From Elusimicrobiales bacterium (lineage in GTDB: Bacteria > Elusimicrobiota > Elusimicrobia > Elusimicrobiales > UBA9959): 64,000 nt of DNA. The first letter of the stretch is position 1; every line of letters starts with the position of its first letter. Both the position numbers and the translations under genes were made by a program. The notes under the pieces are model-generated. The model made no database searches. It was not told where the DNA came from and saw only the letters and a program-made list of their open reading frames with translations. Below, piece by piece: positions 4,240 through 56,295 of the stretch. The stretch lies in the NCBI GenBank assembly GCA_038204165.1, contig JBBRDG010000004.1:4330-68329 (forward strand), given 5' to 3'.

Positions 4240-5394
4240 ATGGGCGCCTATCCTGACAAGAAAAAAATATTAAAAGAGATACTTAAAAAATTACACGGCG
4301 GCCTGGCGCTGGAGGAAGCGAAGCGGCTCTTTGAAACTGAAATAGGCCAAGTTACTTCCAACGAGATCTTTGAACTGGAACAGTCCCTGCTGGCCGACGG
4401 CGTGCCGGCGGAAGAAATAAAAAAATTCTGCAACGTGCACGCGCTGCTGTTCGCGGGCGGTCTGGAGAAGGCCATGGAGGACCCCGCGTCAACTTCGCAT
4501 CCGGTATCCCTTTTCAAGGCTGAGAACGCAGAGATTAAGCGCCGCGTAGACGCCGCCTTGGCCCTACTGCCCTCGCTGAAAGCGGGAAAAAGCGCGGACT
4601 GGGTAAAGAACCTGCTGGAAGAACTGCGGGCGGTAAACATTCACTATGAGCGCAAGGAGCAGTTGCTTTTTCCATATCTGGAAAAAGTAGGCTTTACCGG
4701 GCCTTCAAAAGTGATGTGGGGCAAGCATAACGAAATCCGCGAAATGTTAAAAAAAGCCAGTAGCGCCGCCCCGGTGGAATTCCCGGCGGCGGCGCAGGCC
4801 CTGCTGGAAGAAATAGACGGCATGATCTTCAAAGAAGAGAATATTCTCTTTCCGGCGGCCCTTGAAAAATTAAAACCCGGGGATTGGGCCGGGATCTTTC
4901 GCGACAGCGCGCAAGCCGGCTATATCTTTATCGAACCTCCGGCTGCGGTTGCCGAAGCCCTGGATATAGCCCAAAACACGGCCGCCCTTTCCGGCGCCGT
5001 AGTTTCGCTGCCCAGCGGGAATCTTAACCTTACCGAACTTACCTCCCTGCTAAACACCCTGCCCGTCGACCTTACCTTTGTGGATGCGGAAGACACCGTG
5101 CGCTACTTCTCCGAGGGCAAAGACAGGTTCTTTCTGCGGGCCCGCGCCATTATAGGCCGCAAGGTGCAGAACTGCCACCCGCCGCAAAGCCTGGGGGCCG
5201 TGGAAAAAATTCTTGCCGCCTTCAAAGACGGTTCCAAAAGCACAGAAGAATTCTGGATAAATCTGAAAGGCCGAACCGTCCACATCCGCTACTTCGCCCT
5301 GCGCGGCCCGGACGGCAAGTATCTGGGTTCCCTGGAAGTAACGCAGGACATAACGGACATACAGAAAATAAAAGGCGAAAAAAGGCTGGCATAA
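4240..5394 (+). CDS. DUF438 / hemerythrin-like / PAS-domain protein
   Basis: 384 aa. The N-terminus (ILKKLHGG...EAKRLFE...EQSLLADGVP) is DUF438-like. The middle has H/E-rich hemerythrin-like helices (HYERKEQLLFPYLE...WGKHNEIREML). The C-terminus has a PAS-like fold (LTFVDAEDTVRYFSEG...CHPP). Confidence 0.65.
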   Translation: MGAYPDKKKILKEILKKLHGGLALEEAKRLFETEIGQVTSNEIFELEQSLLADGVPAEEIKKFCNVHALLFAGGLEKAMEDPASTSHPVSLFKAENAEIKRRVDAALALLPSLKAGKSADWVKNLLEELRAVNIHYERKEQLLFPYLEKVGFTGPSKVMWGKHNEIREMLKKASSAAPVEFPAAAQALLEEIDGMIFKEENILFPAALEKLKPGDWAGIFRDSAQAGYIFIEPPAAVAEALDIAQNTAALSGAVVSLPSGNLNLTELTSLLNTLPVDLTFVDAEDTVRYFSEGKDRFFLRARAIIGRKVQNCHPPQSLGAVEKILAAFKDGSKSTEEFWINLKGRTVHIRYFALRGPDGKYLGSLEVTQDITDIQKIKGEKRLA

Positions 5395-8835: not shown

Positions 8836-10197
8836 TCAGCGGCGCTTTTTATTCACCAGGTCGTCTACCTTCTGGATGACCCGCAGGGCCAGGCCGGCCG
8901 CGCTTCTGGATTGAGTGGCGTAGGTGGCGTCCTTCATATGGTCCAGTTCCTTGCCAAGCTCCACCTGGATTGAATCGGTTTTTCTGATGGAAAGCACCTG
9001 TGACGGGTAGACGCTTTTGTGCCCGGTCATCAGAAAACTTATAACGCAGGCGACGGTGGCGTAAGGCGCAACCACCGGCCCGAAAAGCTCCACGGCCATA
9101 ATGCTGGCCGCTATGGGCGTATTGGCGGCCCCTGCCAGCACGGCCACAAAACCAATGGCGGCGAACGTACCGGAATCCAGATGCATAACCTGGGCGTACA
9201 GGCTGCCCACGGACGTGCCGATAAAGAATATGGGAGTAATTATCCCGCCGCTGCCGCCAAAACTCAGGGTGATGGAAGTAAAAACGGATTTAAGGAAGAA
9301 GTCGTACCAGGCCGCCGGCGCGCCCCCCAACATAGCTTCAATAGGTCCCAGACCGAGGCCCAGGTATTTTTTCGAGAACACCAGCGCCAGCAGAACGAGC
9401 GCCGTGCCGCCGAGCAGGCCTTTAAGAGGACTCCAGATCTTTATGCGTTCCGAAACCTTTTCCCCGTATTTCAGCAACTCGATCAGGAGCAGCGAAGCCA
9501 GGCCGAAGAATATCCCGGCGAACATAACCTTTAGCATAAATGTTTCGGAGAATATCGGCACAAAATTTATGGGCTTGTAGAAATAAGAGATGCCCATGGC
9601 GGACGACACCTGGTAGGCGGTTATCCCCGCGATGAACGAAGGCAGCAGGACTTCGTAAAGGATAGCGCCCACAAAAAGCACTTCCACACCAAAGATGGCC
9701 CCTGCTATGGGCGTGCCGAAGACGGCCGCGAAGCCTGCGCTTATGCCGCAGATCACAAGCTTTTTCCGATCGTGCTCGTTAAACCTGAAAAAATCGCTCA
9801 AAGCGGAAGTAAGTCCGGCGCCTATCTGGGCGCAGGGCCCTTCCTTTCCCGCCGAACCCCCCAAGGCAAGGGTTACCACAGTGGCGACAAGCTTTACCGG
9901 AACCACCGCGAGAGGAATTCTGGCGGCGTTCTTATGAACCGCCTCAATAACTTTTTCAGTGCCGTGCCCCTTGGCGTCGGGCGCAAGATACTTAACCAGC
10001 AGGGCGCTAACGAACAGCGCCACCGGAAGGAAAAGATACGAATATTCCCAGGTATTGGCGGCCACAGTAGAAATATTTAAGAGTTTAAGAAAAAGCGTGG
10101 TGGCAAAGCCGACTACGGCCCCGGCCACAGTGGCCAGAAATACCCATTTAACGATGCTTATGAACAGTAAGGTAGATTCAGTGATGTGTGTCTTCAT
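8836..10197 (-). CDS. ClC-family voltage-gated chloride channel/antiporter
   Basis: GSAGKEGP, GTPIAGAIFGVE and GGIITP selectivity-filter-type motifs. ATG at 10197 has an upstream AGGGA RBS and is preferred over the track start at 10248. Confidence 0.85.
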   Translation of the reverse strand: MKTHITESTLLFISIVKWVFLATVAGAVVGFATTLFLKLLNISTVAANTWEYSYLFLPVALFVSALLVKYLAPDAKGHGTEKVIEAVHKNAARIPLAVVPVKLVATVVTLALGGSAGKEGPCAQIGAGLTSALSDFFRFNEHDRKKLVICGISAGFAAVFGTPIAGAIFGVEVLFVGAILYEVLLPSFIAGITAYQVSSAMGISYFYKPINFVPIFSETFMLKVMFAGIFFGLASLLLIELLKYGEKVSERIKIWSPLKGLLGGTALVLLALVFSKKYLGLGLGPIEAMLGGAPAAWYDFFLKSVFTSITLSFGGSGGIITPIFFIGTSVGSLYAQVMHLDSGTFAAIGFVAVLAGAANTPIAASIMAVELFGPVVAPYATVACVISFLMTGHKSVYPSQVLSIRKTDSIQVELGKELDHMKDATYATQSRSAAGLALRVIQKVDDLVNKKRR

Positions 10198-10248
10198 TTT
10201 TATATCCCTGTTTTCATTATATGAAAGAGAGCCCGTTAAAGCCATCAA

Positions 10249-10580: not shown

Positions 10581-10649
10581 CGCGGCTAATTAAGAGCCGT
10601 GGTCCGCGCACAAAAACGCCATCGCTACGGCTTTCTGAATTGTGTTATT

Positions 10650-12068
10650 CTATTCCTCGGCCGGTTTTTCCGGCCCATTGCTTTCAAAGGAAACAGGGAT
10701 AATAAAACTTATCTCGGTCCCCTTACCGGTTTCCGACTGCACGTCGAGCATGGCGGCATGGCGGTCAGCCACCATTTTACAAAACGCCAGGCCGAGCCCG
10801 ATGTTCTTATAGCTTTTCCCCATAGTGCTGTACTTCCTGAAGATCTCCTCGCGAAAATTCTCCGGGATGCCCTCGCCCTCATCGCTTACATAAATGGCGG
10901 CTTTCCCGTTTTCCCTTATCCTTGCCCCGAGCTTAATCGCCCCTCCGGCCGGAGTGTACTGTATGGCGTTAAGCACAAGGTTGCCTATCACCCGCTTGAT
11001 AAGATCATGGTCGCCGAACAGCCAGGCGCCCTTTATTTCCGGAGCTAGCGCTAGTGCCCACCTCTTGCCGGCGGCACGGACAGAAGCCGCGTTTTCTCCG
11101 GCACATTCGCGCAGGAAATCTTCCAGCACCAAACGCTCCTTTTCCGGCTGATAGTCAGCGTTATTTAGCTTAGCGGTATTAAGAACATCGCCAATCATGG
11201 TCACAAGCATGCCTAACGACGTGCGCGCGATCTGCGCCAGATTGCGAAGTTGCTCTTTACTGAACGTTTTAGATTCCTCCTCGGAAAGCAGCAGGTCCAG
11301 CGAGGCCTTAAGCGCGGTAACCGGCTGTTTCAGATCATGCACGGTCATAGAGAAAAAGTCGTCCTTCTGAGTCTCGGCATTCCCGCGCCGTGTTTCTTCT
11401 TCCTTAAGACGGCTATGAAGGCCGGCAAGCGTTTGCGCTATTTTCCAGGTTTCCGTTCCATGGCTGAACGCGTCCTCCGCCGGAAGTGTATCAGCATTCA
11501 CGTTTTCAGCCAGTTCATTAAGAGCGCTCAGCTCCCGGCCCAGGCGTAAAGTAAGCAGCCATACGACCAGCATTATAACCGCGATGAAAATCAGGCTGAT
11601 GGCTATCCCTCGCCACATCAGGTTTTCAGTGATTTCACTTATTCCCGTCACTGAAACGCCCATTTCCATGTAACCATAACGGCTGCCGTTGCGGACAATG
11701 TCGCTTCGGGTATCGAAGACTTTATCCGTAACATCAAAAATATCTTTGTCGGCCGTTCTATTCTCTATACTTATACCGGGCTCTGCCCGCCTGTACAGCA
11801 CGTGGCCGCGCGTGTCAGAAACCCGGAGATAAGCGATCTGTTTAAAATTCTCGAAGTTTTTCAGTTTTTCCTTCAAGCGGACGGTCTCTCCTTTCTCCAG
11901 AGCCTCGCCGGCCATGTCCGTCAGAAAAGCGGTTATGTAATCTACCCGGTCCTGAGTGCGGCCCAGCAGCGCCTCCCTGGAACTTTGCACCCTGTCAAAA
12001 ATAATTACGGCGGAAAACACAAAAACCAAAACAGTTGTAAATAATATAAATTTAGTCCGCAGTTTCAT
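10650..12068 (-). CDS. sensor histidine kinase (TM - periplasmic domain - TM - HisKA - HATPase_c)
   Basis: H-box FFSMTVHDLKQP, N/G boxes (LNAIQYTP, DEGEGIP, GLGLAFC), and two TM helices flanking about 140 aa. Overlaps otsB by 17 nt. Confidence 0.85.
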   Translation of the reverse strand: MKLRTKFILFTTVLVFVFSAVIIFDRVQSSREALLGRTQDRVDYITAFLTDMAGEALEKGETVRLKEKLKNFENFKQIAYLRVSDTRGHVLYRRAEPGISIENRTADKDIFDVTDKVFDTRSDIVRNGSRYGYMEMGVSVTGISEITENLMWRGIAISLIFIAVIMLVVWLLTLRLGRELSALNELAENVNADTLPAEDAFSHGTETWKIAQTLAGLHSRLKEEETRRGNAETQKDDFFSMTVHDLKQPVTALKASLDLLLSEEESKTFSKEQLRNLAQIARTSLGMLVTMIGDVLNTAKLNNADYQPEKERLVLEDFLRECAGENAASVRAAGKRWALALAPEIKGAWLFGDHDLIKRVIGNLVLNAIQYTPAGGAIKLGARIRENGKAAIYVSDEGEGIPENFREEIFRKYSTMGKSYKNIGLGLAFCKMVADRHAAMLDVQSETGKGTEISFIIPVSFESNGPEKPAEE

Positions 12069-12843
12069 GTTTCCTCCTGCTGGCGATAATAAACCTGAGA
12101 AATTTTAGCACTTCAGACTGACTAGCAAGAAAATACCCGGCTTTTGAACCGGTACTGCGGCCAACCCGGACTGTTACTCCGCCCGAAACAAGCGCCTTGA
12201 ACATATCCTCGTCGGTAAGATCGTCCCCTACCGCCACGGCGAAAGCTCTCCCCAACCGTTTACGCAGCAATTCCAGAGCCCGGCCTTTATGGGTGGCGCC
12301 ACGCGTAACGAGTTCAAATACTTTGTGGCCGCCGCGCCAGTATAGATTCCCGCTTTGCGCATTGCCAAGAACTTTCATTCTGGCGAAAAAACCATGTTTA
12401 TAGGCCGGTTTAATATTCCTATAGTGCACGCTGGCTGAAAACACTTTGTTTTCCACCAACACCCCGGTTCCGGCGGGGAATCTTTCCTGGATGTCAGCAA
12501 CAATGCCTGGGATCAGGCCGCGAACTTTGGCCGCTGCCGCGTCGCGCCAGGCGAAACCCGGCCCCTCTATTTCCATACCGTGGTTTCCCCCGTAATAGAG
12601 GTTTTTTAAACCGACCAGCCGGCGCACGCTTTGCAGCGCCCGGCCGCTGAGGATAAAAACAGAAACCCCGGGCAGGGCAGCCAGGTCTTTAAGGGCTGCC
12701 TTGAACTCAGGCTTCAGCCGCGCCTGCCCGGGGGTTTCCGCCAGGGCCGCAAGCGTGCCGTCGAAGTCCAGGGTAACAAGCAGGTCCGGCGAGGCGGCCA
12801 GCCGCGCAGAGACAACTGCGGTGTTCTTCCAGAGAGACTTCAT
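12052..12843 (-). CDS. otsB: trehalose-6-phosphate phosphatase
   Basis: HAD motif I LDFDGTLA, motif IV GDDLTDEDMF. Immediately downstream of otsA (1-nt gap). Confidence 0.85.
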   Translation of the reverse strand: MKSLWKNTAVVSARLAASPDLLVTLDFDGTLAALAETPGQARLKPEFKAALKDLAALPGVSVFILSGRALQSVRRLVGLKNLYYGGNHGMEIEGPGFAWRDAAAAKVRGLIPGIVADIQERFPAGTGVLVENKVFSASVHYRNIKPAYKHGFFARMKVLGNAQSGNLYWRGGHKVFELVTRGATHKGRALELLRKRLGRAFAVAVGDDLTDEDMFKALVSGGVTVRVGRSTGSKAGYFLASQSEVLKFLRFIIASRRKHETAD

Positions 12844-12844
12844 C

Positions 12845-15100
12845 TTAAACCCCGGTAGACTTAAAATTACCCATGCGCAGCTTCATCAGTTCCTCTATCA
12901 GATTAGCCGCCCATTTATAGATATTATTTTCGTGCAGGTCCTGGCGCATGCGCGTCATCCGCTCTGTAACTTCCGTTTTAGGCATGGTGAGCGAATAGAA
13001 GATGGCGTCGGCCATCTGCTCGATATCGTACGGATTTACGATAAGCGCGTCCTTCATCTCGCGCGAAGCCCCGGCGAAACGACTCAGGATCAGCACGCCG
13101 CCCAGGTCCTCGCGCGCGGCCACAAATTCCTTAGCCACCAGGTTCATCCCGTCGTGCAGCGAGGTTACCAGGCAGGTATCGGCAATCTTAAAGAACTTAT
13201 TAATTGTTTTATGGTCATGATGTTTATCCAGGAAAACTATGGCCTTCCAATCCTTGGCCTTAAACCTCCAGTTTATCCGGTCTACCTCTGCATGCAGTTC
13301 CGCCAGGAACCGGTGGTACTGCGGGATATGCGTGCGGCTGGGGGCACCGATCTGGATAAGCGTGAATTTCTTCACGTATTCCGGATACTTTTCTAGAAAA
13401 CGCTCCACGGCCTTAACCCTTTCCAGCATGCCTTTGGTGTAGTCTATGCGGTCCACGCCCACGCCGACAAATTCGGCCTTGATGCCGAGTTCTTTGAGCA
13501 GCACCGCGGGGTCCGGTTTTAGAGCCGGGGCATTGCCTTCCGGGTCCGGGTGGGAAAAGTCAACGCTGATAGGAAAAGGCTTCACCGCGGTTATATGACC
13601 TTCCTTCTGCGCGGTGAAATGCTCCCAGTCTATGCGGGATTCTATCGTCCGGTCCACGGTCTCCAGGAAGTTGTTGCAGTAGAATTGAGTCTGGAAACCT
13701 ATCAGGTCCGCACCCAGGAGGCCCATAACCAGTTCCTTCTGCCACGGGCAAATGCCGAACGCTTCCGAATTCGGCCACGGGATATGCCAGAACACCGCCA
13801 CGCGCGCGTCGGGCCGCGCGGCTTTTATCAGGCCCGGCAGCAGGGTAAAATGATAGTCCTGTATCAGCACGCAGGGCTCTTTCACGTCGGCTATCTCTTC
13901 CAGCACCGTGTCCGCGAATTTCCTGTTAACTTCCTGATAATACTGCCAGTCCTCTTTTCTGAAGACCGGGCGAACGTGGGCTATGTGGCACAGCGGCCAG
14001 ATGCCCTCGTTGGAAAAGCCGTAATAGTAGCCGTCTTCCTCTTCCTTGGTAAGGGGAATGCGGCGCAGCGTGTAGGCCGGCTCTTCCGGCGGCACTTTAA
14101 TGCGGTTATGCGCATCCGTCACCTCGAAGTCGGCCTCGCCGCTGCCATGCGCCACCCAGGTGCCGCCGGCCGCTCTAAGGATAGGGTCCAGCGCCGTCAC
14201 AAGACCTCCGGCGGGGACTATAGTGAGGATCTCCTTGCCCTCTTTAATGTGCATATACGGCTCGCGGTTGGACACCACGAAAAGCGGCCGGCCGTCCATC
14301 TTCATTTTTATCTGTTCTTTCAAACGTTCCGGGGTCCAGAGGGATTCGCCTTTTTGACGTAGCCTGGCCTCGTTCTGCGCGGATTTTCTTGCCGCATGCA
14401 GATTTTTCGTGAGTGTGTTCACCTCAAAAGCGATCGGCGCAAAGATGTCCCCTTTTAACGGCGAAACTTGCTCGGAGGCCTCGCCGTTCCGGAGTTTTTT
14501 CATCCATTCCGCCATCTGCGTGAGCGGAGCGAGGACGTGCCACCGGACGACCAGGAGCGTGACAAGCGAGATCAGCAGCATCTGGACGAGCACCCGCAGC
14601 AGCGTCCGGATCCAGATCCGGAACAAGTCGTAGTCTATGTAGGAAACGTCTGTAAACAGGACTATCTTCGCCCGCTCCCCCCCGTTAACTTCAAAGGAAA
14701 CAGGGAACAGGAACATTTTCTTGTTGTTTATCGTATTCACCCTGCCGGAACCGTCCAGGCCCTTCAGCACTTCCTCTATCACTTTGGGGCTGGCGACCAG
14801 GGCCGAATCCAAGGAAGAAGAGCGGGTAATCAATTTGCCCTCCGGGTCATAGATGGCTATCCCGGTCAGCTGCTTCTGGTACTGGAATTTGTCCGCCATC
14901 TTCTGCAGCCCAGCGCGGTTTTTGGATTCGAGATTGCTCCGGGCTGATTCAATGAAGCTTTCCGCCAGCAGGGCGGAGCGCGACTGCACCTCTTCGTAAA
15001 GCTTTAGTTTTTCATGCCTTGCGTTGAACCAGGCCGAAACAATGGAGACAAAAACAACCACCACTATGAGCGAGACTATTAGTCTGACAGTTATACGCAT
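12845..15100 (-). CDS. otsA: trehalose-6-phosphate synthase (GT20) with an N-terminal TM - periplasmic - TM - HAMP sensor module
   Basis: The C-terminal ~480 aa carry GT20 hallmarks (VVSNREPY, GGLVTAL, FWHIPWP, GVDRIDYTKG, SLHDGMNLVAKE). The N-terminal ~270 aa have two TM helices and a HAMP-like linker. Confidence 0.85.
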   Translation of the reverse strand: MRITVRLIVSLIVVVVFVSIVSAWFNARHEKLKLYEEVQSRSALLAESFIESARSNLESKNRAGLQKMADKFQYQKQLTGIAIYDPEGKLITRSSSLDSALVASPKVIEEVLKGLDGSGRVNTINNKKMFLFPVSFEVNGGERAKIVLFTDVSYIDYDLFRIWIRTLLRVLVQMLLISLVTLLVVRWHVLAPLTQMAEWMKKLRNGEASEQVSPLKGDIFAPIAFEVNTLTKNLHAARKSAQNEARLRQKGESLWTPERLKEQIKMKMDGRPLFVVSNREPYMHIKEGKEILTIVPAGGLVTALDPILRAAGGTWVAHGSGEADFEVTDAHNRIKVPPEEPAYTLRRIPLTKEEEDGYYYGFSNEGIWPLCHIAHVRPVFRKEDWQYYQEVNRKFADTVLEEIADVKEPCVLIQDYHFTLLPGLIKAARPDARVAVFWHIPWPNSEAFGICPWQKELVMGLLGADLIGFQTQFYCNNFLETVDRTIESRIDWEHFTAQKEGHITAVKPFPISVDFSHPDPEGNAPALKPDPAVLLKELGIKAEFVGVGVDRIDYTKGMLERVKAVERFLEKYPEYVKKFTLIQIGAPSRTHIPQYHRFLAELHAEVDRINWRFKAKDWKAIVFLDKHHDHKTINKFFKIADTCLVTSLHDGMNLVAKEFVAAREDLGGVLILSRFAGASREMKDALIVNPYDIEQMADAIFYSLTMPKTEVTERMTRMRQDLHENNIYKWAANLIEELMKLRMGNFKSTGV

Positions 15101-15113
15101 AAGAGCTCCTTCG

Positions 15114-16160
15114 TTAATGAATGGCCGTAAGAGCCAGGAAGTAAATCAGCAGCAGCGCCAAGCCGGCGGGGATAGCCGTCTTTGCCCATTCCCGGCTTTT
15201 TATGCCGAGTTTGGAGGCGCATACTATGTTAGGGATATTCCCCGGGATCAGAACGCCGCCGGAAATGAGCAGACTGATAGTGAAGGAAAGTATCTGTTCC
15301 CTGCTCATATACGGAGTTATTCCCGCCGCCGCCAGCGTGGCGTTATCGAGAGCCGCGGAGCTAAGCCCCAGCCAATAAAGCTGCCAGCTGTTAAGCGCCG
15401 GAATCACCCGGCCGGCGATAGGGCTTAAGCCCTCGCCCAGGAATACCAGCGCCGCCACGAACACATAAACCTTGGCTGCCCGGAACAGTATAGTCCGGGT
15501 GCTATCCTCCCCTTCAGCTGTGTCCTTCCTGGAAACTGAGTCCCTGCCCAGCGGCCGCCAGTAGGCCGCCGCCGCTGCCACGGCGATTATGGCGGGAACT
15601 ACCCACAGCAGCAACAGCCGGGACAACCAGAAGAAGCCGGCATAGTGCGGAGCACCGGACAGCCTGGCCGTCACGATAGTTGAAAGCGGCTCGCCCAGGG
15701 GAGTCAGCGCCGCGCCGAGCCCGATAGCGAAACAGGCATAAACCACGGCCCGTATTTGCGATTGTTGGTCCAGGCGGAGATGCTGAATTATCTCGCAAAG
15801 AATTAGCGCGGCGATTATAGCTGTAATAAGGCTGGACAGGAAAGCTAGCGCGATAATAAGCGCAAAGAGAGCGTGCTTTATCCCGATTACGCGCTCAAGC
15901 CGCTCGATAAAACCTTCGACATACTTTTTGCCTGCCTTAAATAAAAAACCCGCGGCTAATACGGCCGCCGAGATCTTGATCGGGTCGACCAGCGACGCCT
16001 CTACCACATGCCAGCTCCACAAATTTGACACGGTCAGGGCGGCGCAGCCCATGAGCAGCAGAAAAAACTCCAGCTCTTCTTCAACCCGCTTGATAGAAAA
16101 CGGCAGCAACAGTACCAGCGCCATTATAAGCGCCAGACCTGGAATAGCCAAATATGACAT
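15114..16160 (-). CDS. polytopic membrane protein, DUF1646-like putative cation transporter
   Basis: 348 aa, about 10 TM helices. The N-terminal LPFSIKRVEEELEFFLLLMG resembles DUF1646 family members as I recall them. Not verified by search. Confidence 0.5.
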   Translation of the reverse strand: MSYLAIPGLALIMALVLLLPFSIKRVEEELEFFLLLMGCAALTVSNLWSWHVVEASLVDPIKISAAVLAAGFLFKAGKKYVEGFIERLERVIGIKHALFALIIALAFLSSLITAIIAALILCEIIQHLRLDQQSQIRAVVYACFAIGLGAALTPLGEPLSTIVTARLSGAPHYAGFFWLSRLLLLWVVPAIIAVAAAAAYWRPLGRDSVSRKDTAEGEDSTRTILFRAAKVYVFVAALVFLGEGLSPIAGRVIPALNSWQLYWLGLSSAALDNATLAAAGITPYMSREQILSFTISLLISGGVLIPGNIPNIVCASKLGIKSREWAKTAIPAGLALLLIYFLALTAIH

Positions 16161-16300
16161 TATGTCCCCTTTCCTGGACCGGTAGCGTTAAGCGTTGCGC
16201 GTATAAAAGAAATAGCCGCCTCCGGTAGTGTATACCTGAATGGCGGCCCGACCATTCCCATCCTTCGGAGGCTGAACTCCGAACCCTTATAAAGTTATTT
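16161..16300 (-). promoter_or_regulatory. structured 5' leader with competing hairpin, anti-terminator and intrinsic-terminator folds (candidate riboswitch or attenuator)
   Basis: On the minus strand there is a UUCGGAG-UUCAGC-CUCCGAA hairpin (~16264-16283). It is followed by a GGCCGCC-21 nt-GGCGGCU stem and AUUUCUUUUAU (~16203-16248). GCCUCCG of hairpin 1 is perfectly complementary to CGGAGGC, which overlaps the terminator 3' arm by 3 nt. Confidence 0.45.
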
Positions 16301-16375
16301 TACCGCATAAAGACAACGGCTGTCCACCTTATCAAGCCAAGGCGCGGGCGCCAACAAAACAAGCGGTTAAAGAAG

Positions 16376-16406
16376 CGGGCCGGATCTCTTTTTAAGACCC
16401 GGCCCG
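16376..16406 (-). terminator. possible terminator hairpin after argF
   Basis: CGGGCCGG / CCGGCCCG 8-bp stem with a 15-nt loop, followed on the minus strand by CUUCUUUAA. The U-tract is weak and the loop is large. Confidence 0.3.
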
Positions 16407-18047: not shown

Positions 18048-21000
18048 CTAAATTCTATCTTTCACCTGTCCAGTCATCTTAACATCTTCGCAGGTCGTTT
18101 TGCTGCGCACCCGCCTTTCCAGCGGCACAGCCAGGCTGTAAGCGCAGGGGACCACGAAAAGGGTAAGCAGAGTGGACAAGAAGACGCCGCCTATTACCAC
18201 CACGGCCATAGGCCGCATGGTCTCAGCGCCCGGGCCTACGGCCACCGCCGGCGGGATGGCGCTGGCGATTGTGGCGAGCGAGGTCATAAGGATGGGGCGC
18301 AGCCTTATAGGGCAGGCCTCCAATAGCGCGGAGCGCACGTCCATACCGGCGTCTCGGCGCCGGTTGGTGAAGTCCACAAGAAGAATGGAGTTCTTCTTAA
18401 CGATACCCATAAGCAGCAGCAGGCCGATCATGCTGTAGATATTAAGCGAGATCCCCGTAGCGCGCAGGGCGATGAACGCGCCGCTGGCGCTGAACGGCAG
18501 GGCCAGCAGCACCACGCCGGGGTGGACGAAGCTGTTGAACTGCGACCCCAGCACCATGTAGGAAGCTGCTATGCCCAGGATGAGCGCCAGCAGCAGGTTA
18601 GCCATAGATTCGCGAAAGGTCTGGGAGCTGCCGCTGAGCACCGCGTGGTACTCTTCCGGCAACAGCGCGGCCGCGGTCTTCGCTACGAAACTTATAGCGT
18701 CGGTCTGCGATTTACCCGGCGTAACGTTCGCAAACATGGTGATAGCGCGCTCGCGGTTATAGCGCGTTATGGTCAGCAGCGCGCTTGTATCTTTCAGCTT
18801 TACCACCTTTGAGAGCTGCACCATTTCCCCCTGCTCGTTCCGGAGCCAGATATTATTTATATCCTGCGCCCGGCTGTTCTCGCTATCAGTAAGCTTCACG
18901 CGGATATCATCCCGGTGGCCGGATTCGTCGGTGTATTTTCCCACGCGCAGCCCGCCGACCAGGGCGTTGATGGTGTCGGCTATATTGGCGACAGTTACGC
19001 CGCGCGCGGCGGCGGCGGCTCTGTCCGGGCCCACGCTAACCTCGGGCATGTTCGGGTTATAGTCCGAATCCACATCCGTCATCAGCCCGGAGGCGTTCAT
19101 TTTCTCCTTCATCTGCCCGCTCAGCGCGGCCAGTTTATCCCAGTCTGGACCCTGCACCGAAAATTCGATAGGGAACCCCCGCTGAGCGGAGAACCCGGCC
19201 AGCGAAAGGTCCTGCATGGTGGCCTTGGAAACGCCCGGGATCCGCTGGAACTCCCCGCGGATGAAGCCCATGAACTCCTGCTGCGTCGGGCGGCGCTTGA
19301 AAGGCGCCGTCACCGGCCTGTCCCCGGGATCTTTAAGGGTTACCAGCAGGATGCCCTGGTTGACCAGCCCGCCCTGGAAGCCGCCGATAGCGATGTAATA
19401 GGTGTCAACTTCGGGCCGCGCCTTCAGGATAGCCTCGGCCTGCCGGAACAGCCCGTCGGTAAATTCCAGTGACGAGCCCAGCGGAGCCTGGATGCTGGCG
19501 AGGAACCGGCTCTGGTCCTGCGGCGGCACGAATTCCTTCCTTACGCCCCGCAGCAGCAGGAGCGAAGAACAGAACACCAGCCCGGCCGCCATCATGACCC
19601 GCCAGCGCCGGTCCAGGCAGAATGCCAGAGCGCCTCCGTAAAACAGCCGCAGTTTTTTCGTCAGGCGGTCCATGAAGCGGCCCAGTCTGGTGGCGCCGCC
19701 GGGCTGCAGGAACTGGGAGGTACGCATGGGCGTAAGGGTGAGCGCCTCGAACAGCGAAAGCGCCACCACCACCGACAAGGTAACGCCGAACTGGAAGAAG
19801 AATTTGCCGATGATGCCGCTCATGAAGACCACCGGCATGAAGATGGCGAGGATCGCCAGCGAAGAGGCCACCGCGGCGGTGGTAATTTCACGCGCGCCGG
19901 TCATAGCCGCGCAGACCCGGTCCAGGCCGCCTTCTGCGTAGCGGACAATGTTCTCCATCACCATGATGGCGTCGTCGACTATGATGCCGATGGAAAGCGA
20001 AAGCCCGAGCAACGTGAAGGTATTAAGCGTAAAGCCGCAGAAGTAGAGCACAAGAAAAGACCCGATCAGGGACGTAGGTATTGCCAGCAGCACGTTGAAA
20101 GCCGAGCTGAACGACCCCAGGAACAGCCAGCAGATGGCGGAGGTGAGCAGCACCGACATGCAGAGCGTGAACAGGAGCTCATGCGTGGCGTCCTCTATAA
20201 AGCGCGTAATGTCGGTGGTAAGCGCGAGCTTCATCCCCGCCGGGAGCACTTTATTCAGTTCAGCCATGCGCGTCTTGACCGCGCGGCCGATAGCCACGGC
20301 GTTGGAGCCGCGCTGTTTAATAACGCCCAGCCCCACGGCTCGCTCACCCTTCAGCCTGGAGATGCGGCGCACGTCGGCCATGCCTTCCTCGGCGTAGCCC
20401 ACGTCGCTGATTTTTAGTTTCTTCCAGATAGGGACGCCGCTCCTGGACGCGATCACCAGGTCGTTGAATTCCTGCGGCGTGGCGGCTTCGCTCCGCACCC
20501 GCACGTTCACTTCTTTGGGGCCGTTGTCCATGTAGCCCGACGGTGTAAGGGTGTGCTCGCTGTTAATGGCGCCTATCACGTCCGAAACCGAGATCTGCTG
20601 CCGGCGCATTTTAGGCGAGTCCAGCCAGACGCGCATATTGGGAGCGATATAGCCGCCCAGGAACACGTCCCCAACCCCAGGTACTGTGGTCAGCCTGTCC
20701 TTCAGGTGGTCCCGGACGAACAACATTATTTCGCGCAGTGGCCTGCTGCCGGTGAGCGCGGCCCACAGGATAGGCTGGTCTTCGGGGTTGGACTTGGTGA
20801 CTATCGGCGGGTCGATGTCGTTGGGCAGCGTGCGCTGCGCCTGGGCTATCTTGGTCTGCACCTCCTGCAGCGCCACGTCCACGTCCTGGCTTAGTTCGAA
20901 CTCTATGGTAATAGTGGCCAACCCTTCCTGGCAGGTGGATTTTACGTTGCGGATGCCGGCCACGCTCATCACCGAGCTTTCCAGCACGTCGGCCACGGCG

Positions 21001-21191
21001 GATTCCATAGTTTCCGGCGAGGCGCCCACCCAGGTAGTAGTGATGGTCAGCACCGGAAAATCCACGTCAGGCAACTGGCTAAGGCCCATGCGCGAAAAGC
21101 CCAGCGCCCCGAAAACGATCAGGGCCGCCATCACCATCCAGGCGAATACGGGATTTTTTATTGATATTTCTGACAGCGTCATAAGTACCAA
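18048..21191 (-). CDS. RND efflux transporter permease (AcrB/HAE1-like)
   Basis: 1047 aa with a 12-TM, two-large-loop architecture. The N-terminus SIKNPVFAWMVMAALIVFGALGF...LPDVDFPVLTITT is typical of AcrB-family pumps. The start could be the ATG at 21182. Confidence 0.92.
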   Translation of the reverse strand: MVLMTLSEISIKNPVFAWMVMAALIVFGALGFSRMGLSQLPDVDFPVLTITTTWVGASPETMESAVADVLESSVMSVAGIRNVKSTCQEGLATITIEFELSQDVDVALQEVQTKIAQAQRTLPNDIDPPIVTKSNPEDQPILWAALTGSRPLREIMLFVRDHLKDRLTTVPGVGDVFLGGYIAPNMRVWLDSPKMRRQQISVSDVIGAINSEHTLTPSGYMDNGPKEVNVRVRSEAATPQEFNDLVIASRSGVPIWKKLKISDVGYAEEGMADVRRISRLKGERAVGLGVIKQRGSNAVAIGRAVKTRMAELNKVLPAGMKLALTTDITRFIEDATHELLFTLCMSVLLTSAICWLFLGSFSSAFNVLLAIPTSLIGSFLVLYFCGFTLNTFTLLGLSLSIGIIVDDAIMVMENIVRYAEGGLDRVCAAMTGAREITTAAVASSLAILAIFMPVVFMSGIIGKFFFQFGVTLSVVVALSLFEALTLTPMRTSQFLQPGGATRLGRFMDRLTKKLRLFYGGALAFCLDRRWRVMMAAGLVFCSSLLLLRGVRKEFVPPQDQSRFLASIQAPLGSSLEFTDGLFRQAEAILKARPEVDTYYIAIGGFQGGLVNQGILLVTLKDPGDRPVTAPFKRRPTQQEFMGFIRGEFQRIPGVSKATMQDLSLAGFSAQRGFPIEFSVQGPDWDKLAALSGQMKEKMNASGLMTDVDSDYNPNMPEVSVGPDRAAAAARGVTVANIADTINALVGGLRVGKYTDESGHRDDIRVKLTDSENSRAQDINNIWLRNEQGEMVQLSKVVKLKDTSALLTITRYNRERAITMFANVTPGKSQTDAISFVAKTAAALLPEEYHAVLSGSSQTFRESMANLLLALILGIAASYMVLGSQFNSFVHPGVVLLALPFSASGAFIALRATGISLNIYSMIGLLLLMGIVKKNSILLVDFTNRRRDAGMDVRSALLEACPIRLRPILMTSLATIASAIPPAVAVGPGAETMRPMAVVVIGGVFLSTLLTLFVVPCAYSLAVPLERRVRSKTTCEDVKMTGQVKDRI

Positions 21192-21222: not shown

Positions 21223-22257
21223 TCAGTTGCCTTTGTAGGTTTCGGTCGAGCCGGGCGCCGAAGGCGGCGGGGCAGCCGGTAGCGGAGGGGCGGAAACAGC
21301 ACCCTCCGGCTGCACCGGCTTGCCGTCCGCGTCGAAGATGGCGAAAGAGCCGTCCTTAAAATCCAGCAGGATCTGCAGCGGGTCCGCACCGCCACCGGTG
21401 AACCGGACTTTAGTCACATCCCGGCCAAGGTACAGCATATAAACGGGCTTGCCGCTGGTCCGGTCGTAAAGGAAGGCCGCATTCTCGGTGCCGGTCACCT
21501 CCACCATTCGTCGCAGGTCGGGGCTGGCCCATTGCCTGCCCGTCCCCGGCGCCGGGGTCACCTCGGGAGGAGGGATGGTAGTGGACTTCTGCACCGTGAT
21601 CCCGCCTTCCTGGTAGGGATAATAGTTGTTGTCCATGTAGACATAGTCCATGCCGCCGGGCCCTTGCCACCACCAGGAGCCGTTCCACCAGAACACCCAG
21701 CGCGCGTAGCTGGTGTCGTACCACCACCACCGGTCCCCGTAATACCGGGTCCAGTAGAAAGACGGGCCGAAATAGAAACCGTACCAGTCTATATCGTCTT
21801 TATCGTAATAATGGGCGTACCGCCGGCCGCCGGCGTCGTGCCAGAAGAACTTGCTATGCTCCCGCTCCTGCCCTCTTTCACGCTCCAGGGAATGCAGGGC
21901 ACCGCGATCGTTGGTGATCTCCGCGTGGTGGGACGGCGGGATCCTCGCCGGGTTTACGCGGATCTCGTCGCCGTTGCCGAAGCGGCGCGGGGCAGCGAAC
22001 TGGTGACTGTCGTTGACTATATGGGCTGGTTCAAGGCGTTCCGGACGGGTAATGGAGATATTCTGCATCCTCGTTATCTGGCGGCCTTCACCGCGGTTCC
22101 AGGAGCGTTCCTGCCGGGCCTCGCCGCCCCCCGTAGAGCGCTCCTGCCTGCCCTCCCCCCGCTCGCGGTCTCCGCCCCGTTCCTCGGCTCTGGCCGCGCC
22201 GCCGCACAAAATTATCCCGGCCAGCAGCGCCAGGAACGTAAATTGTTTAGTATTCAT
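21223..22257 (-). CDS. secreted Trp/Tyr-rich protein with N-terminal Arg/Glu/Gly repeats, unknown function
   Basis: 344 aa with a signal peptide (LLAGIILCGGAARA). Repeats GEGRQERS / GEARQERS / GEGRQ. The core has 12 Trp in ~65 aa (RWWWYDTSYARWVFWWNGSWWWQG). GGAGGA RBS. Confidence 0.6.
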   Translation of the reverse strand: MNTKQFTFLALLAGIILCGGAARAEERGGDRERGEGRQERSTGGGEARQERSWNRGEGRQITRMQNISITRPERLEPAHIVNDSHQFAAPRRFGNGDEIRVNPARIPPSHHAEITNDRGALHSLERERGQEREHSKFFWHDAGGRRYAHYYDKDDIDWYGFYFGPSFYWTRYYGDRWWWYDTSYARWVFWWNGSWWWQGPGGMDYVYMDNNYYPYQEGGITVQKSTTIPPPEVTPAPGTGRQWASPDLRRMVEVTGTENAAFLYDRTSGKPVYMLYLGRDVTKVRFTGGGADPLQILLDFKDGSFAIFDADGKPVQPEGAVSAPPLPAAPPPSAPGSTETYKGN

Positions 22258-25339: not shown

Positions 25340-25732
25340 TCAGCGCTTTGCAGCGGCCAGGAAAGTCCTGACCATAGTTTCAAGGGCTCCCAGGTTCGCC
25401 GGCTTGGAAAGGTAATCGAAAGCGCCGATCTTCAGGCAATCCCGCGCTACGGCTTCGTCCCCGTTGCCGCTGAGCATGATGAAACCGGTCCGGGGCATTT
25501 CCGGCACAAGTTCGGTCAACACTTCCACCCCGTTCTTGCCCGGCATGGAGATATCGAGCAGCACCACGTCGGGACGCCTGGCCCTGGCCAGCTCCACCGC
25601 GCGCCCGCCGTCGTTAGCCTGCAGCGTCTCATACCCGTACGAAGACAGGAACCTGCAGACAGCGTTGGCAATAGCCTCGTCGTCATCCGCAACCAGCACC
25701 AGGGCCTTTGAAACGCCGTTAGTATTGATCAT
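25340..25732 (-). CDS. stand-alone response-regulator receiver (CheY-like)
   Basis: LVADDD, DVVLLDISMPG (phospho-acceptor Asp), conserved Ser (LSG) and Lys (SKP). No output domain. ATG at 25732 with a GGAG RBS is preferred over the GTG at 25765. Confidence 0.85.
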   Translation of the reverse strand: MINTNGVSKALVLVADDDEAIANAVCRFLSSYGYETLQANDGGRAVELARARRPDVVLLDISMPGKNGVEVLTELVPEMPRTGFIMLSGNGDEAVARDCLKIGAFDYLSKPANLGALETMVRTFLAAAKR

Positions 25733-25746
25733 AGTGTGCTCCAGTG

Positions 25747-26217
25747 TTAAGCGCTGAACCCGCACTTGTCTTCATATTCCCGCTCGAGCGCAAGCCGCCG
25801 CACCTCTTCAGCGAAGATAGCGTTACCGGCCAGCGCGTCATTGAAGTGCTCGGCCAGCAGCATGAACACTTTGGCGTCTTCCGTGCAGGTAATAGTGGCG
25901 TTCCTGGGCGCCTGACGCAGCAGCGCCATTTCGCCGAAGCAGTCGCCCGGCCCAAGCACCGACAGGCGCCTGGAAAAGAAGCCCCACTCCCTCACGGTAA
26001 CGCTGACGCGACCCTCGTAGATCACAAAGAACGAATCTCCTGTTTCCCCCTGCCGGCAGATCTTTTCGCCTTTCTTATAACTGAACATACTTACCCAGGC
26101 AAGGATCTTTTCCAGCAAGCCCATCTGTATATTAGCGAACAGCTTTATCTTGCGCACCATCCGGGTGAACTGGACGGTATCAAATTCTCTCATGCGCAGT
26201 TTTTCCATAGATTGCAC
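25747..26217 (-). CDS. cyclic-nucleotide-binding domain protein without a DNA-binding domain
   Basis: 156 aa. GDSFFVIYEG...GPGDCFGEMALL...PRNATI is a cNMP-binding beta-roll. No HTH follows. Confidence 0.8.
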   Translation of the reverse strand: MQSMEKLRMREFDTVQFTRMVRKIKLFANIQMGLLEKILAWVSMFSYKKGEKICRQGETGDSFFVIYEGRVSVTVREWGFFSRRLSVLGPGDCFGEMALLRQAPRNATITCTEDAKVFMLLAEHFNDALAGNAIFAEEVRRLALEREYEDKCGFSA

Positions 26218-52964: not shown

Positions 52965-54119
52965 TTACTTTTTGCCGACCGCTATCAGCCGGGGAGCGCT
53001 GAACTTACCCTCGAAGCCGAGCAGGTCTACCAGCGCGATGCGCATATAGTAACTACCCGCGGGAAGTTTATCGTTGAGATCGATGGAGTCAAAGGCGTCG
53101 TAGTTCTTATCCAGCAGGAGCGCGGTAAAATTCTGGTCCTTTGAGACCTGCAGATGGTAGCTCTGCACGGGGTTAGCCACCGAGATCATCTTGACGATCT
53201 CGCTAGCGTCTATGTTCTTGTCATCGACGTTCCCGGCTTGGGGTATGCCCTTGGTCAGGTCCTTGTCCTTGGGCAGGGCGGCGGCCACTACCGGCCCCGT
53301 CTTAACCCCTTTCTTCATGTTCAGCGAGACTACTCCGCCATCGGTCTTCAGGCGTGTGCCCCCGGACCCTGCGAGCGCCGTCAGGGCGCCTGGCTCCAGT
53401 TCCGGCAGCGGCGGCAGTTTTACCGGCTGCGAGGGAGGCATGTCCATCTTTACTTCAGCGGCGAAGCCGGCGGAGACCTCCACGGTCTTACCCTGGGCCT
53501 CTACGTCGGCCTTACCTTTATAGACCTGCACCAGCGTGGTAAGGTCGTCATTAAGCCTGGCTCCGAATTCGGTATCCTTGGTCTTGGGCGTAATGCGGGC
53601 GGAGGCCGTGACCACGCGGGAGCGCAGGCCGCGCATTTCGCCGGCCAGCAGTTCCACGTCGGTGTTCTTCTTGCCGGGCGGGCGCAGGATGGCTATGGAA
53701 TTGGGATACAGGTTCAGGATCTCGCCGGTGTAGAAGCGGACGTCCGCGCGCGCGTCGGCGCGGGTACGCAGCGTATCGTTCTTAAAAAGGTCCATCTTAA
53801 GCGCCACGTTCTGCCAGTCCGAGACGCCGGTGCGGCGGAACAGCACTTCGTTAAGGGAATAGACCAGCTTGGCGGCGCGGTACTGCTCTTTTATCAGCCT
53901 CACCGGCACCTTGAGCTCCATGCCGGGCAGGGCCCGGGTCGGGTCAGAAGAGGGCAGGCGGTTGTATTTCAGAATCTCGTTCCAGCGGGTAGGGTCCTTA
54001 AGATAGGTATTGGAAATACTCCATAACGTGTCGCCCGGCTTCACGGTCATGGCCTGCAGCTCCTCGGCCGAGGCGGCGCCAGGCAGACAGAACAGCAGGG
54101 CCAGCAGCAGGGTTTTCAC
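52965..54119 (-). CDS. LysM + FecR-like domain secreted protein
   Basis: Signal peptide, then LysM (MTVKPGDTLWSISNTYLKDPTRWNEILKYNRL), a FecR-like beta-rich middle, and a C-terminal Ig/FN3-like segment (YHLQVSKDQNF). Confidence 0.75.
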   Translation of the reverse strand: MKTLLLALLFCLPGAASAEELQAMTVKPGDTLWSISNTYLKDPTRWNEILKYNRLPSSDPTRALPGMELKVPVRLIKEQYRAAKLVYSLNEVLFRRTGVSDWQNVALKMDLFKNDTLRTRADARADVRFYTGEILNLYPNSIAILRPPGKKNTDVELLAGEMRGLRSRVVTASARITPKTKDTEFGARLNDDLTTLVQVYKGKADVEAQGKTVEVSAGFAAEVKMDMPPSQPVKLPPLPELEPGALTALAGSGGTRLKTDGGVVSLNMKKGVKTGPVVAAALPKDKDLTKGIPQAGNVDDKNIDASEIVKMISVANPVQSYHLQVSKDQNFTALLLDKNYDAFDSIDLNDKLPAGSYYMRIALVDLLGFEGKFSAPRLIAVGKK

Positions 54120-56248: not shown

Positions 56249-56295
56249 AATCTTTGCGAGTTCATTATACCATTAGTTGCCGAGCCAGAGCCCGG

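Follow-up and report, generated by a model that had tools for sequence, protein, structure and literature searches.

A trehalose-6-phosphate synthase with a predicted WalK-type membrane sensor module, encoded in an Elusimicrobia operon behind a candidate cation riboswitch

The trehalose-6-phosphate synthase OtsA of Escherichia coli (PDB 1gz5 and 1uqt) is a soluble 474-aa protein that lacks any N-terminal extension and is paired with the phosphatase OtsB. The stretch of DNA considered here, 64,000 nucleotides from an Elusimicrobiales bacterium (GenBank assembly GCA_038204165.1, contig JBBRDG010000004.1, positions 4,330 to 68,329) that we refer to as the window, contains an open reading frame (ORF; 12845..15100, minus strand, indicated below by −) for a 751-aa homolog, sensor-OtsA, in which 272 additional residues precede a catalytic domain that is homologous to the E. 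coli enzyme over its full length. A first-pass annotation of the DNA had read these residues as a transmembrane (TM) helix, an extracytoplasmic domain of about 140 aa, a second TM helix, and a HAMP-like linker leading into the GT20 domain, and had rightly described the classical OtsA as a soluble protein of about 470 aa. The locus raises the question of what a membrane module with the layout of a sensor is doing on a metabolic enzyme. The analysis described below leads us to favor, with moderate confidence, the reading that sensor-OtsA is a receptor-type trehalose-6-phosphate synthase within a salt-responsive operon.

Architecture of the extended synthase

The first TM helix (TM1) comprises residues 3-24 (15029..15094, −), with a Kyte-Doolittle hydropathy peak of 2.91 over residues 3-21 and a helix in the AlphaFold2 model. 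It is followed by the predicted extracytoplasmic domain (residues 25-166; 14603..15028, −), by TM2 (residues 167-185; 14546..14602, −; hydropathy peak 2.54), by a HAMP-like module composed of amphiphilic sequence 1 (AS1), a connector, and AS2 (residues 186-249; 14354..14545, −), and by a linker of fixed length with the conserved motif ESLWTxERL (residues 250-272; 14285..14353, −), after which the GT20 domain occupies residues 273-751 (12845..14284, −). The strings quoted in the first-pass annotation all lie where it had placed them (LIVSLIVVVVFVSIVSAW at residues 7-24, LLRVLVQMLLISLVTLLVV at 167-185, and VVSNREPY at 275-282), and hydropathy, Pfam, and AlphaFold2 agree on the layout that it had proposed. 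Lysine and arginine residues located N-terminal of TM1 and after TM2 fit an N-in topology with the sensor outside.

The N-terminal module appears to be a genuine part of the protein. The ATG at 15100 is preceded at a distance of 7 nt by the Shine-Dalgarno sequence GAAGGAG, the stop codon of the preceding gene lies 13 nt before this ATG, and independent gene callers report 751-aa products for the orthologs in other genomes. When compared with the closest relative, the codons for residues 1-272 exhibit proportions of nonsynonymous and synonymous differences (pN and pS) of 0.21 and 0.69, respectively; the strongest constraint of the module is found in the TM2-HAMP-linker segment, with a pN of 0.105 and a pS of 0.68. 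On this sequence evidence we conclude that the module is translated and that purifying selection acts on it, and a true start downstream of the TM region, the outcome that would have undone the first-pass proposal, was not found. Internal starts at Met265 and Met267 were considered and rejected, as neither has a Shine-Dalgarno sequence and these Met residues are not conserved.

The fold of the extracytoplasmic domain was approached by modeling and by profile comparison. The AlphaFold2 model of residues 1-272 (monomer, seven-sequence alignment, mean predicted local distance difference test score (pLDDT) of 78) contains a long helix that begins with TM1 and projects into the periplasm, a compact α/β domain, a helix spanning residues 153-204 that includes TM2, a connector, a helix of residues 218-249, and, after a short break, a helix of residues 257-269 that leads into the first GT20 strand. 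In a Foldseek search of the PDB, the best match of this module was the full-length WalK model 9a5d_A (E 1.6e-6), followed by crystal structures of the WalK extracellular domain (target-normalised TM-score of 0.69 for 4ywz) and then by CitA, DcuS, and chemoreceptor Cache/PDC domains that include TlpQ. Searches by sequence pointed to the same protein: the family profile matched the WalK extracellular domain 5is1 among PDB sequences (E 7.7e-5), and positions 7-258 of the NCBIfam WalK model, covering TM1, sensor, TM2, and HAMP, aligned with residues 5-246 of sensor-OtsA (E 3e-8). Among 150 family members, Pfam matches with E ≤0.01 were obtained for sCache_3_2 in 19 and for Cache_WalK in 5. We conclude from the model and these matches that the extracytoplasmic domain has a WalK-type Cache/PDC fold.

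For the segment that follows TM2, evidence comes from the helices of the model, from the placement and conservation of the hallmark residues, from a Pfam HAMP alignment that takes in nearly the whole profile (positions 2-51 of 53), and from a match to a canonical HAMP domain. In the model, the two helices directly follow TM2, and a Pro (P192, present in 96% of the family members) starts AS1, a Gly (G206, 93%) starts the connector, and a Glu (E226, 97%) lies in AS2. The family hidden Markov model (HMM) aligns this stretch in register with the canonical HAMP domain (Pfam E 1.4e-13) of a kinase encoded elsewhere in the window (54119-56272), and Pfam HAMP reaches E ≤0.01 in 7 of the 150 family members (best value 1.7e-4). 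The conservation maximum of the N-terminal module is located in AS2 and the linker rather than in the sensor, with E244, A245, R248, W255, T256, R259, and L260 each conserved in at least 99% of the sequences. W255 and the SNR motif of the catalytic domain lie exactly 22 residues apart in all 55 members compared, and the lengths of the HAMP connector and the sensor vary among the family. An input domain that varies ahead of a transmitter that hardly changes is what one expects of a receptor, not of a passive anchor.

The first-pass annotation had suggested a survey of such fusions, and it reveals a widespread family. An exhaustive HMM search with the N-terminal profile against 1.84 billion cluster representatives (50% identity) returned 2467 proteins with E ≤0.001, 990 with E ≤1e-10, and 249 with E ≤1e-30, most of them fragments from short contigs; the idea that the family is absent from databases was rejected on the basis of the 249 clusters in the last group. 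Complete members have 745-761 aa and a common layout, and the named sources belong to the Elusimicrobiota, the Acidobacteriota (Terriglobales), and the Methylomirabilota, so that at least 249 clusters from at least three phyla carry the architecture. On the strength of these profile matches we conclude that the Cache-HAMP-like-GT20 fusion is a conserved multi-phylum family. A metagenomic member of 913 aa (P0011) has two tandem copies of the sensor, in a dCache-like arrangement, before TM2, HAMP, and GT20, and two longer variants of 817 aa (P0240) and 826 aa (P0245) contain insertions. In these two acidobacterial proteins, GT20 is interrupted between its N-lobe and C-lobe by low-complexity inserts of 60-80 aa with a high content of Ser, Ala, Gln, and Gly. 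A word-index search with the OtsA N-terminal piece alone retrieved nine proteins, truncated or frameshifted, and the same search with the N-terminal piece of the downstream kinase alone gave no match, even though the full-length kinase is present at 100% identity. In all sources the family proteins are annotated as plain trehalose-6-phosphate synthase, and the precomputed Pfam record of the 751-aa orthologs lists GT20 alone, which is probably why the architecture has gone unnoticed.

The GT20 assignment itself is strong (Pfam PF00982, E 2.7e-115, 386.2 bits with a cut-off of 32.5; residues 274-738 aligned with profile positions 4-471 of 473). Solved OtsA/Tps1 structures match only this part of the protein, the best being mycobacterial OtsA (E 3e-74), with the E. 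coli OtsA structures at E 5e-64. The best single-function NCBIfam model is TIGR02400, with a score of 433.9 bits that lies under its equivalog cut-off of 564.85, and the GgpS model gives 292 bits. The best NCBIfam model for the GT20 part is PRK14501 (480 bits, positions 4-465 of 729), which describes OtsA-OtsB fusions of a similar length, approximately 730 aa; their extra domain is a C-terminal phosphatase, whereas that of sensor-OtsA is an N-terminal membrane sensor. A bifunctional synthase-phosphatase fusion was rejected as the cause of the 751-aa length, since the additional residues are at the N-terminus and a gene of its own encodes OtsB. That gene (12052..12843, −) was identified by TIGR00685 (122.7 bits, above the equivalog cut-off of 68) and Pfam Trehalose_PPase (E 6.6e-33), and an OtsB gene adjoins sensor-OtsA in every locus with an identifiable downstream gene. 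It is this neighboring phosphatase that speaks for the synthesis of trehalose 6-phosphate by sensor-OtsA.

To inspect the active site, E. coli OtsA was aligned with five family members (gene numbering equals crystal numbering plus 1), and the eleven residues listed as binding glucose 6-phosphate or UDP-glucose in the E. coli enzyme (PMC1769515) were located. Ten of the eleven are invariant (Arg9, Tyr76, Trp85, Arg300, Gly22, Asp130, His154, Arg262, Asp361, and Glu369). The remaining one, listed as Trp40, is ambiguous in the alignment, where W39 is conserved and W42 is replaced by His or Gln. Judged by these residues, the GT20 domain of sensor-OtsA looks catalytically competent. The Arg of VVSNR, the first of the binding residues, is situated about five residues past the end of the linker, and we infer that a change carried by the linker would reach the acceptor-binding loop. 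A separate observation concerns W42, which is His in sensor-OtsA: this His belongs to TWVAHGS (residues 308-314, ~14158-14178, −) and stands at the second Trp of the E. coli LWFGWSG, and the replacement in the region of the glucose 6-phosphate site may alter acceptor binding or regulation.

The downstream kinase and the candidate riboswitch

The second gene downstream of sensor-OtsA (10650..12068, −), which overlaps the end of otsB, encodes a sensor histidine kinase with HisKA and HATPase_c domains that are both over threshold. The first-pass annotation had pointed out that this kinase has the same TM-140 aa-TM layout as the synthase, and hydropathy peaks at residues 7-25 and 154-172 bear this out; its N-terminal TM-Cache/PDC-TM-HAMP module covers residues 1-234 (11367-12068, −). 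The two strings that had been paired as weakly similar were both located, KQLTGIAIYDPEGKLI at OtsA residues 76-91 and KQIAYLRVSDTRGHVL at kinase residues 76-91. Alignment of the two modules by BLASTP gave 22% identity with a nonsignificant E value of 0.068, and the case for homology accordingly rests on profile comparisons and their controls. When the family HMM was run against the 479 six-frame ORFs of the window, the kinase ranked first (E 1.3e-6), and its periplasmic segment alone outscored 1000 of 1000 shuffled sequences. When the profile of the OtsA N-terminal family was compared by hhalign with that of 16 kinase orthologs, the probability was 97.9% (E 3.9e-13) over 229 collinear columns, which extend from the first residue through HAMP, and a comparison of the sensor-only profiles gave 94.8% over the first 68 columns. 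As a control, an unrelated TM-sensor-TM-HAMP kinase of the window yielded probabilities of 6.6% and 26.5%. The TM2-HAMP segment of the OtsA and kinase families, compared alone, gave just 38.7%, so the relation at the level of HAMP is weak by itself; the corresponding region of the kinase matches Tsr with E 0.0015. In the AlphaFold2 model of the kinase module (pLDDT 85.7), the elements follow one another as in OtsA, and its top Foldseek match is again WalK 9a5d_A (E 1.2e-7), with 4u64, the periplasmic output domain of a LapD ortholog, as its second structural match. The structural dissimilarity of the two periplasmic domains that would have counted against the earlier suggestion was not observed, and the weak similarity that it had noted is that of remote homologs with 16-19% identity. 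We conclude from the profile comparisons that the two N-terminal modules are true remote homologs, a relation that is no proof of a common ligand.

A response regulator was sought within the operon and around it, and none was found; the single receiver domain of the 64-kb window lies at 25340-25765. It belongs to a stand-alone receiver protein (141 aa) whose gene overlaps the end of that for a protein with a cyclic-nucleotide-binding domain (156 aa; the pair at 25340-26217, −), and it is a candidate partner of the kinase. A paralog of the kinase (P0201, approximately 40% identity, with a like N-terminal module) is encoded in other loci (L010/L011, 8566-11920), where it is flanked by HSP20 and an HtrA-like PDZ protease, a setting of envelope or protein stress and not of trehalose.

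The 5′ end of the operon contains a feature that the first-pass annotation lacked. A covariance model search identified an nhaA-I RNA aptamer (Rfam RF03057, the Li+-I riboswitch class; 16238..16286, −) with a score of 41.4 bits (gathering threshold 37, E 1e-5) and a match to the full model. It is located 78 nt 5′ of the first gene of the operon (15114..16160, −), which encodes a DUF1646 membrane protein (Pfam DUF1646 E 6e-100, with a weak CitMHS match). Upstream of the aptamer lies a candidate sigma-70-like promoter, TGGACA-18 nt-TAAAAT (16297..16326, −; 10 of 12 consensus matches), and just upstream of this candidate is a strong terminator-like hairpin (16376-16406) after the gene for ornithine carbamoyltransferase. 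RNA folding predicts that the aptamer is followed by an intrinsic-terminator-like element (16203..16248, −), consisting of a hairpin (16214-16248) and a U tract (16203-16214); the centroid hairpin has a free energy of −19.6 kcal/mol and is followed by UAUUUCUUUUAU. The sequence of the 5′ arm of this hairpin also forms the 3′ strand of helix P2 in the aptamer, giving two competing folds. The operon probably ends after the kinase gene, where a weak terminator-like hairpin (10618..10631, −) was found by consensus scan only. Between 9500 and 17600 no RNA element beside nhaA-I was detected.

The same arrangement recurs in relatives. An nhaA-I RNA lies 5′ of the sensor-OtsA gene or operon in all five of the other Elusimicrobia loci compared (L001, L002, L003, L007, and L008), where it likewise scores over the Rfam gathering threshold; it is followed either by a transporter gene or, as in L001, directly by the sensor-OtsA gene. 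An analogous terminator hairpin was folded in L001, L003, and L008 (at 4822-4870 and again at 15112-15159), and a complementary segment with a U tract is readable in each of the six nhaA-I instances of these relatives. The second instance of L008, a locus from an Elusimicrobiales genome (15112-15159, −), stands 37 nt 5′ of an operon with SBP_bac_1, two BPD_transp_1, and ABC_tran genes, which may serve the salt-induced uptake of a compatible solute or sugar. RNAs of the nhaA-I family have been validated as Li+-sensing ON switches, and rare terminator-bearing variants, reported from Deltaproteobacteria only, respond to Na+ instead (White et al. 2022, PMC9646797). The RNAs described here have a terminator platform resembling that of the Na+-responsive variants and come from Elusimicrobia, in contrast to the deltaproteobacterial origin of the published ones. 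The same paper lists otsA among the nhaA-I-associated genes (16 cases), suggests Li+ or Na+/osmotic control of trehalose, and lists DUF1646 as a proposed Na+/H+ antiporter; it mentions no sensor module on OtsA. In view of the covariance and folding results, we conclude that the predicted riboswitch is a second, transcriptional, and cation-dependent input to the operon.

The gene order of transporter, 751-aa OtsA, OtsB, and kinase is retained in both of the other Elusimicrobia genomes inspected for it (L006, L007, L008, and L009). Genes near the sensor-OtsA loci encode DUF1646, Na_Ca_ex, and CitMHS-type transporters, ClC and MscS-type channels, a sodium:solute symporter (SSF), and TreT. The riboswitch and these transporters and channels indicate that the system is part of a salt and osmotic stress response, at least in Elusimicrobia. 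In Elusimicrobia bacterium RIFOXYA12_FULL_51_18 (L006/L007, 1-12314), two large GT20 genes for proteins of 743-751 aa are located a few kilobases apart, each followed by OtsB and a DUF5752 + TreT pair, with the riboswitch, DUF1646, and the kinase accompanying the second GT20 gene only. A DUF5752-TreT pair also follows sensor-OtsA and OtsB on an acidobacterial contig (L005).

Possible roles of the N-terminal module

We infer from the architecture and the conservation that the sensor regulates catalysis, and what is said here of the direction of the effect and the identity of the cue has the same basis. According to the receptor reading, sensor-OtsA would be an inner-membrane protein, homodimeric as the working mode of HAMP modules suggests and with a HAMP-like module of four helices. 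A cue from the membrane or from outside the cytoplasm, most probably one related to salt or osmotic stress, would induce a conformational change in the sensor, TM2, and HAMP. The ESLWTxERL linker would relay this change to the N-lobe or acceptor site of GT20 or to the mutual position of the two GT20 domains, allowing the synthesis of trehalose 6-phosphate to be tuned in seconds without new transcription, and OtsB would then yield trehalose. The operon would be turned on through antitermination by the cation-sensing nhaA-I riboswitch, and the co-transcribed kinase would pass a like cue to a transcriptional response by way of a response regulator. A favorable point is the contrast between a sensor domain that varies, and is even duplicated in P0011, and a linker length that is fixed in 55 of 55 members.

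Several observations weigh against this reading. The Pfam HAMP match of sensor-OtsA (PF00672, residues 185-234, profile positions 2-51 of 53) scores 13.6 bits against a gathering threshold of 25, with E 0.087, and the sCache_3_2 (E 0.038) and SMP_2 (E 2.8e-4) matches of its extracytoplasmic domain are likewise under the cut-off. The region of the putative Cache ligand pocket (residues 95-125) is poorly conserved, such that no ligand can be proposed. The acceptor-site W42 of E. coli OtsA (gene numbering) is replaced throughout the sensor family, by His or Gln. Finally, acidobacterial members have neither the riboswitch nor the kinase, which confines the demonstrated salt link to Elusimicrobia. 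The structural features of a HAMP domain are present and the Pfam score falls short, and the term HAMP-like, which the first-pass annotation had already chosen, is an apt one for a two-helix module that follows TM2 and carries the hallmark residues. As for the pocket, the best-conserved sensor residues of the family are membrane-proximal, and given this combination a specific small ligand is no more likely to be the cue than a physical or ionic signal. The osmolarity responses of PhoQ and EnvZ are of this physical or ionic kind.

The leading alternative to the receptor reading is that the module serves as an anchor or scaffold, which tethers and dimerizes OtsA at the membrane, near a transporter or for product channeling, and conveys no signal. 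No conserved Cache ligand pocket is evident, the best-kept residues of the sensor lie near the membrane, and a transcriptional salt input is already supplied by the riboswitch. A simple tether, however, would have no need of a folded Cache domain of approximately 140 aa and a HAMP module. The hallmark residues and a strictly invariant linker length are conserved across phyla, and the diversification or duplication of a sensor ahead of a constant transmitter is typical of receptors. We regard a pure anchor as unlikely.

The homology of the OtsA and kinase modules from end to end, the co-transcription of their genes with ends that overlap in several genomes, and the operon's lack of a response regulator would also be compatible with OtsA and the kinase pairing through these modules, as a hetero-oligomer or in a WalK-YycH-like fashion, with one protein modulating the other. 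Against such an accessory co-sensor stand the identity of just 16-19% between the modules, the occurrence of sensor-OtsA without the kinase both in Acidobacteriota and in L001, where the riboswitch directly precedes OtsA, and one genome that has two putative sensor-OtsA paralogs and one kinase. We consider this pairing improbable.

Signaling might also run outward in the manner of LapD, with GT20 sensing UDP-glucose, glucose 6-phosphate, or trehalose 6-phosphate and the periplasmic domain acting on a periplasmic partner. Modules of the PDC-TM-HAMP type are able to signal in this direction, and the LapD-ortholog output domain 4u64 is the second structural match of the kinase model; but the catalytic and substrate-binding residues of sensor-OtsA are intact, an OtsB partner is adjacent in every locus, and no conserved candidate gene for a periplasmic partner is found nearby, and we hold this possibility to be very slight. 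The least tenable explanation, that the real start is Met265 or Met267, two in-frame ATG codons just 5′ of the GT20 domain, with the upstream 264 codons not part of the enzyme or joined to it by an assembly error, is effectively excluded by the strong Shine-Dalgarno sequence at ATG 15100 and its absence from the internal ATGs, the lack of conservation of the internal Met residues, the gene calls for the orthologs, the purifying selection on residues 1-272, and the independent occurrence of the same fusion hundreds of times in genomes and metagenomes.

Returning to sensor-OtsA as a receptor enzyme, we tentatively extend the proposal in two directions: Cache-HAMP-GT20 proteins may constitute an unrecognized class of one-polypeptide receptor enzymes that gate a metabolic glycosyltransferase, and the Elusimicrobia may possess a three-tier salt response in which the riboswitch would license transcription, the receptor enzyme would set the flux of compatible solute in real time, and the kinase would carry the same cue to the transcriptome.

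Relation to known systems

WalK (YycG) is the best structural and sequence match of the whole N-terminal module, and the order of elements in the two proteins is equal. They differ in that the output of WalK is PAS-DHp-CA acting on WalR, whereas that of sensor-OtsA is a GT-B glycosyltransferase; moreover, the identity is only 10-15%, and no YycH/YycI partners were seen for sensor-OtsA. Receptor enzymes that contain HAMP include the HAMP-adenylyl cyclases (such as mycobacterial Rv3645), HAMP-GGDEF proteins, and LapD, and these resemble sensor-OtsA in combining an extracytoplasmic sensor, TM helix, HAMP, and cytoplasmic catalytic domain in one polypeptide. To our knowledge, the outputs of HAMP are signaling enzymes, namely cyclases, kinases, phosphatases, and methyl-accepting domains. 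Post-translational activation by salt is established for GT20 enzymes that make compatible solutes, as illustrated by GgpS of Synechocystis and the K+-stimulated OtsA of E. coli, but in those cases the cytoplasmic ionic strength acts on a soluble enzyme without a transmembrane receptor. A search of the full-text literature, the coverage of which was incomplete, found no published fusion of a HAMP, Cache, or TM-sensor module with trehalose-6-phosphate synthase or GT20. The parts are all known (GT20, the WalK-type Cache, HAMP, and nhaA-I); the novelty lies in how they are combined, a metabolic glycosyltransferase standing in the place of the HAMP output.

The usual account of compatible-solute synthesis invokes control by transcription and by cytoplasmic ionic strength. 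Should the receptor reading be true, a sensor located on the committing enzyme would link the envelope directly to metabolism, independently of transcription. A metabolic GT-B glycosyltransferase would join the output domains of HAMP, and product formation would offer a simple readout of HAMP signaling. The association of otsA with the Li+-I riboswitch, which was left unexplained when it was reported (PMC9646797), is here placed in a concrete operon whose makeup speaks for Na+ or osmotic stress. Because threshold-based Pfam annotation overlooks the module, similar hidden fusions of receptors and enzymes may be under-counted.

Two minor observations were made on genes outside the operon. A ClC-type chloride channel gene adjoins the trehalose operon both in the window (8836-10248, −) and in L003 (2391-3800), on opposite sides; no riboswitch, for fluoride or otherwise, was detected before the window ClC gene. 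Elsewhere in the window (21223-22257, −) is a gene for a 344-aa protein without a Pfam match, which starts with a signal-peptide-like segment, contains ERxxGxG repeats and a core rich in Trp and Tyr, and adjoins an AcrB-type resistance-nodulation-division pump (18048-21191).

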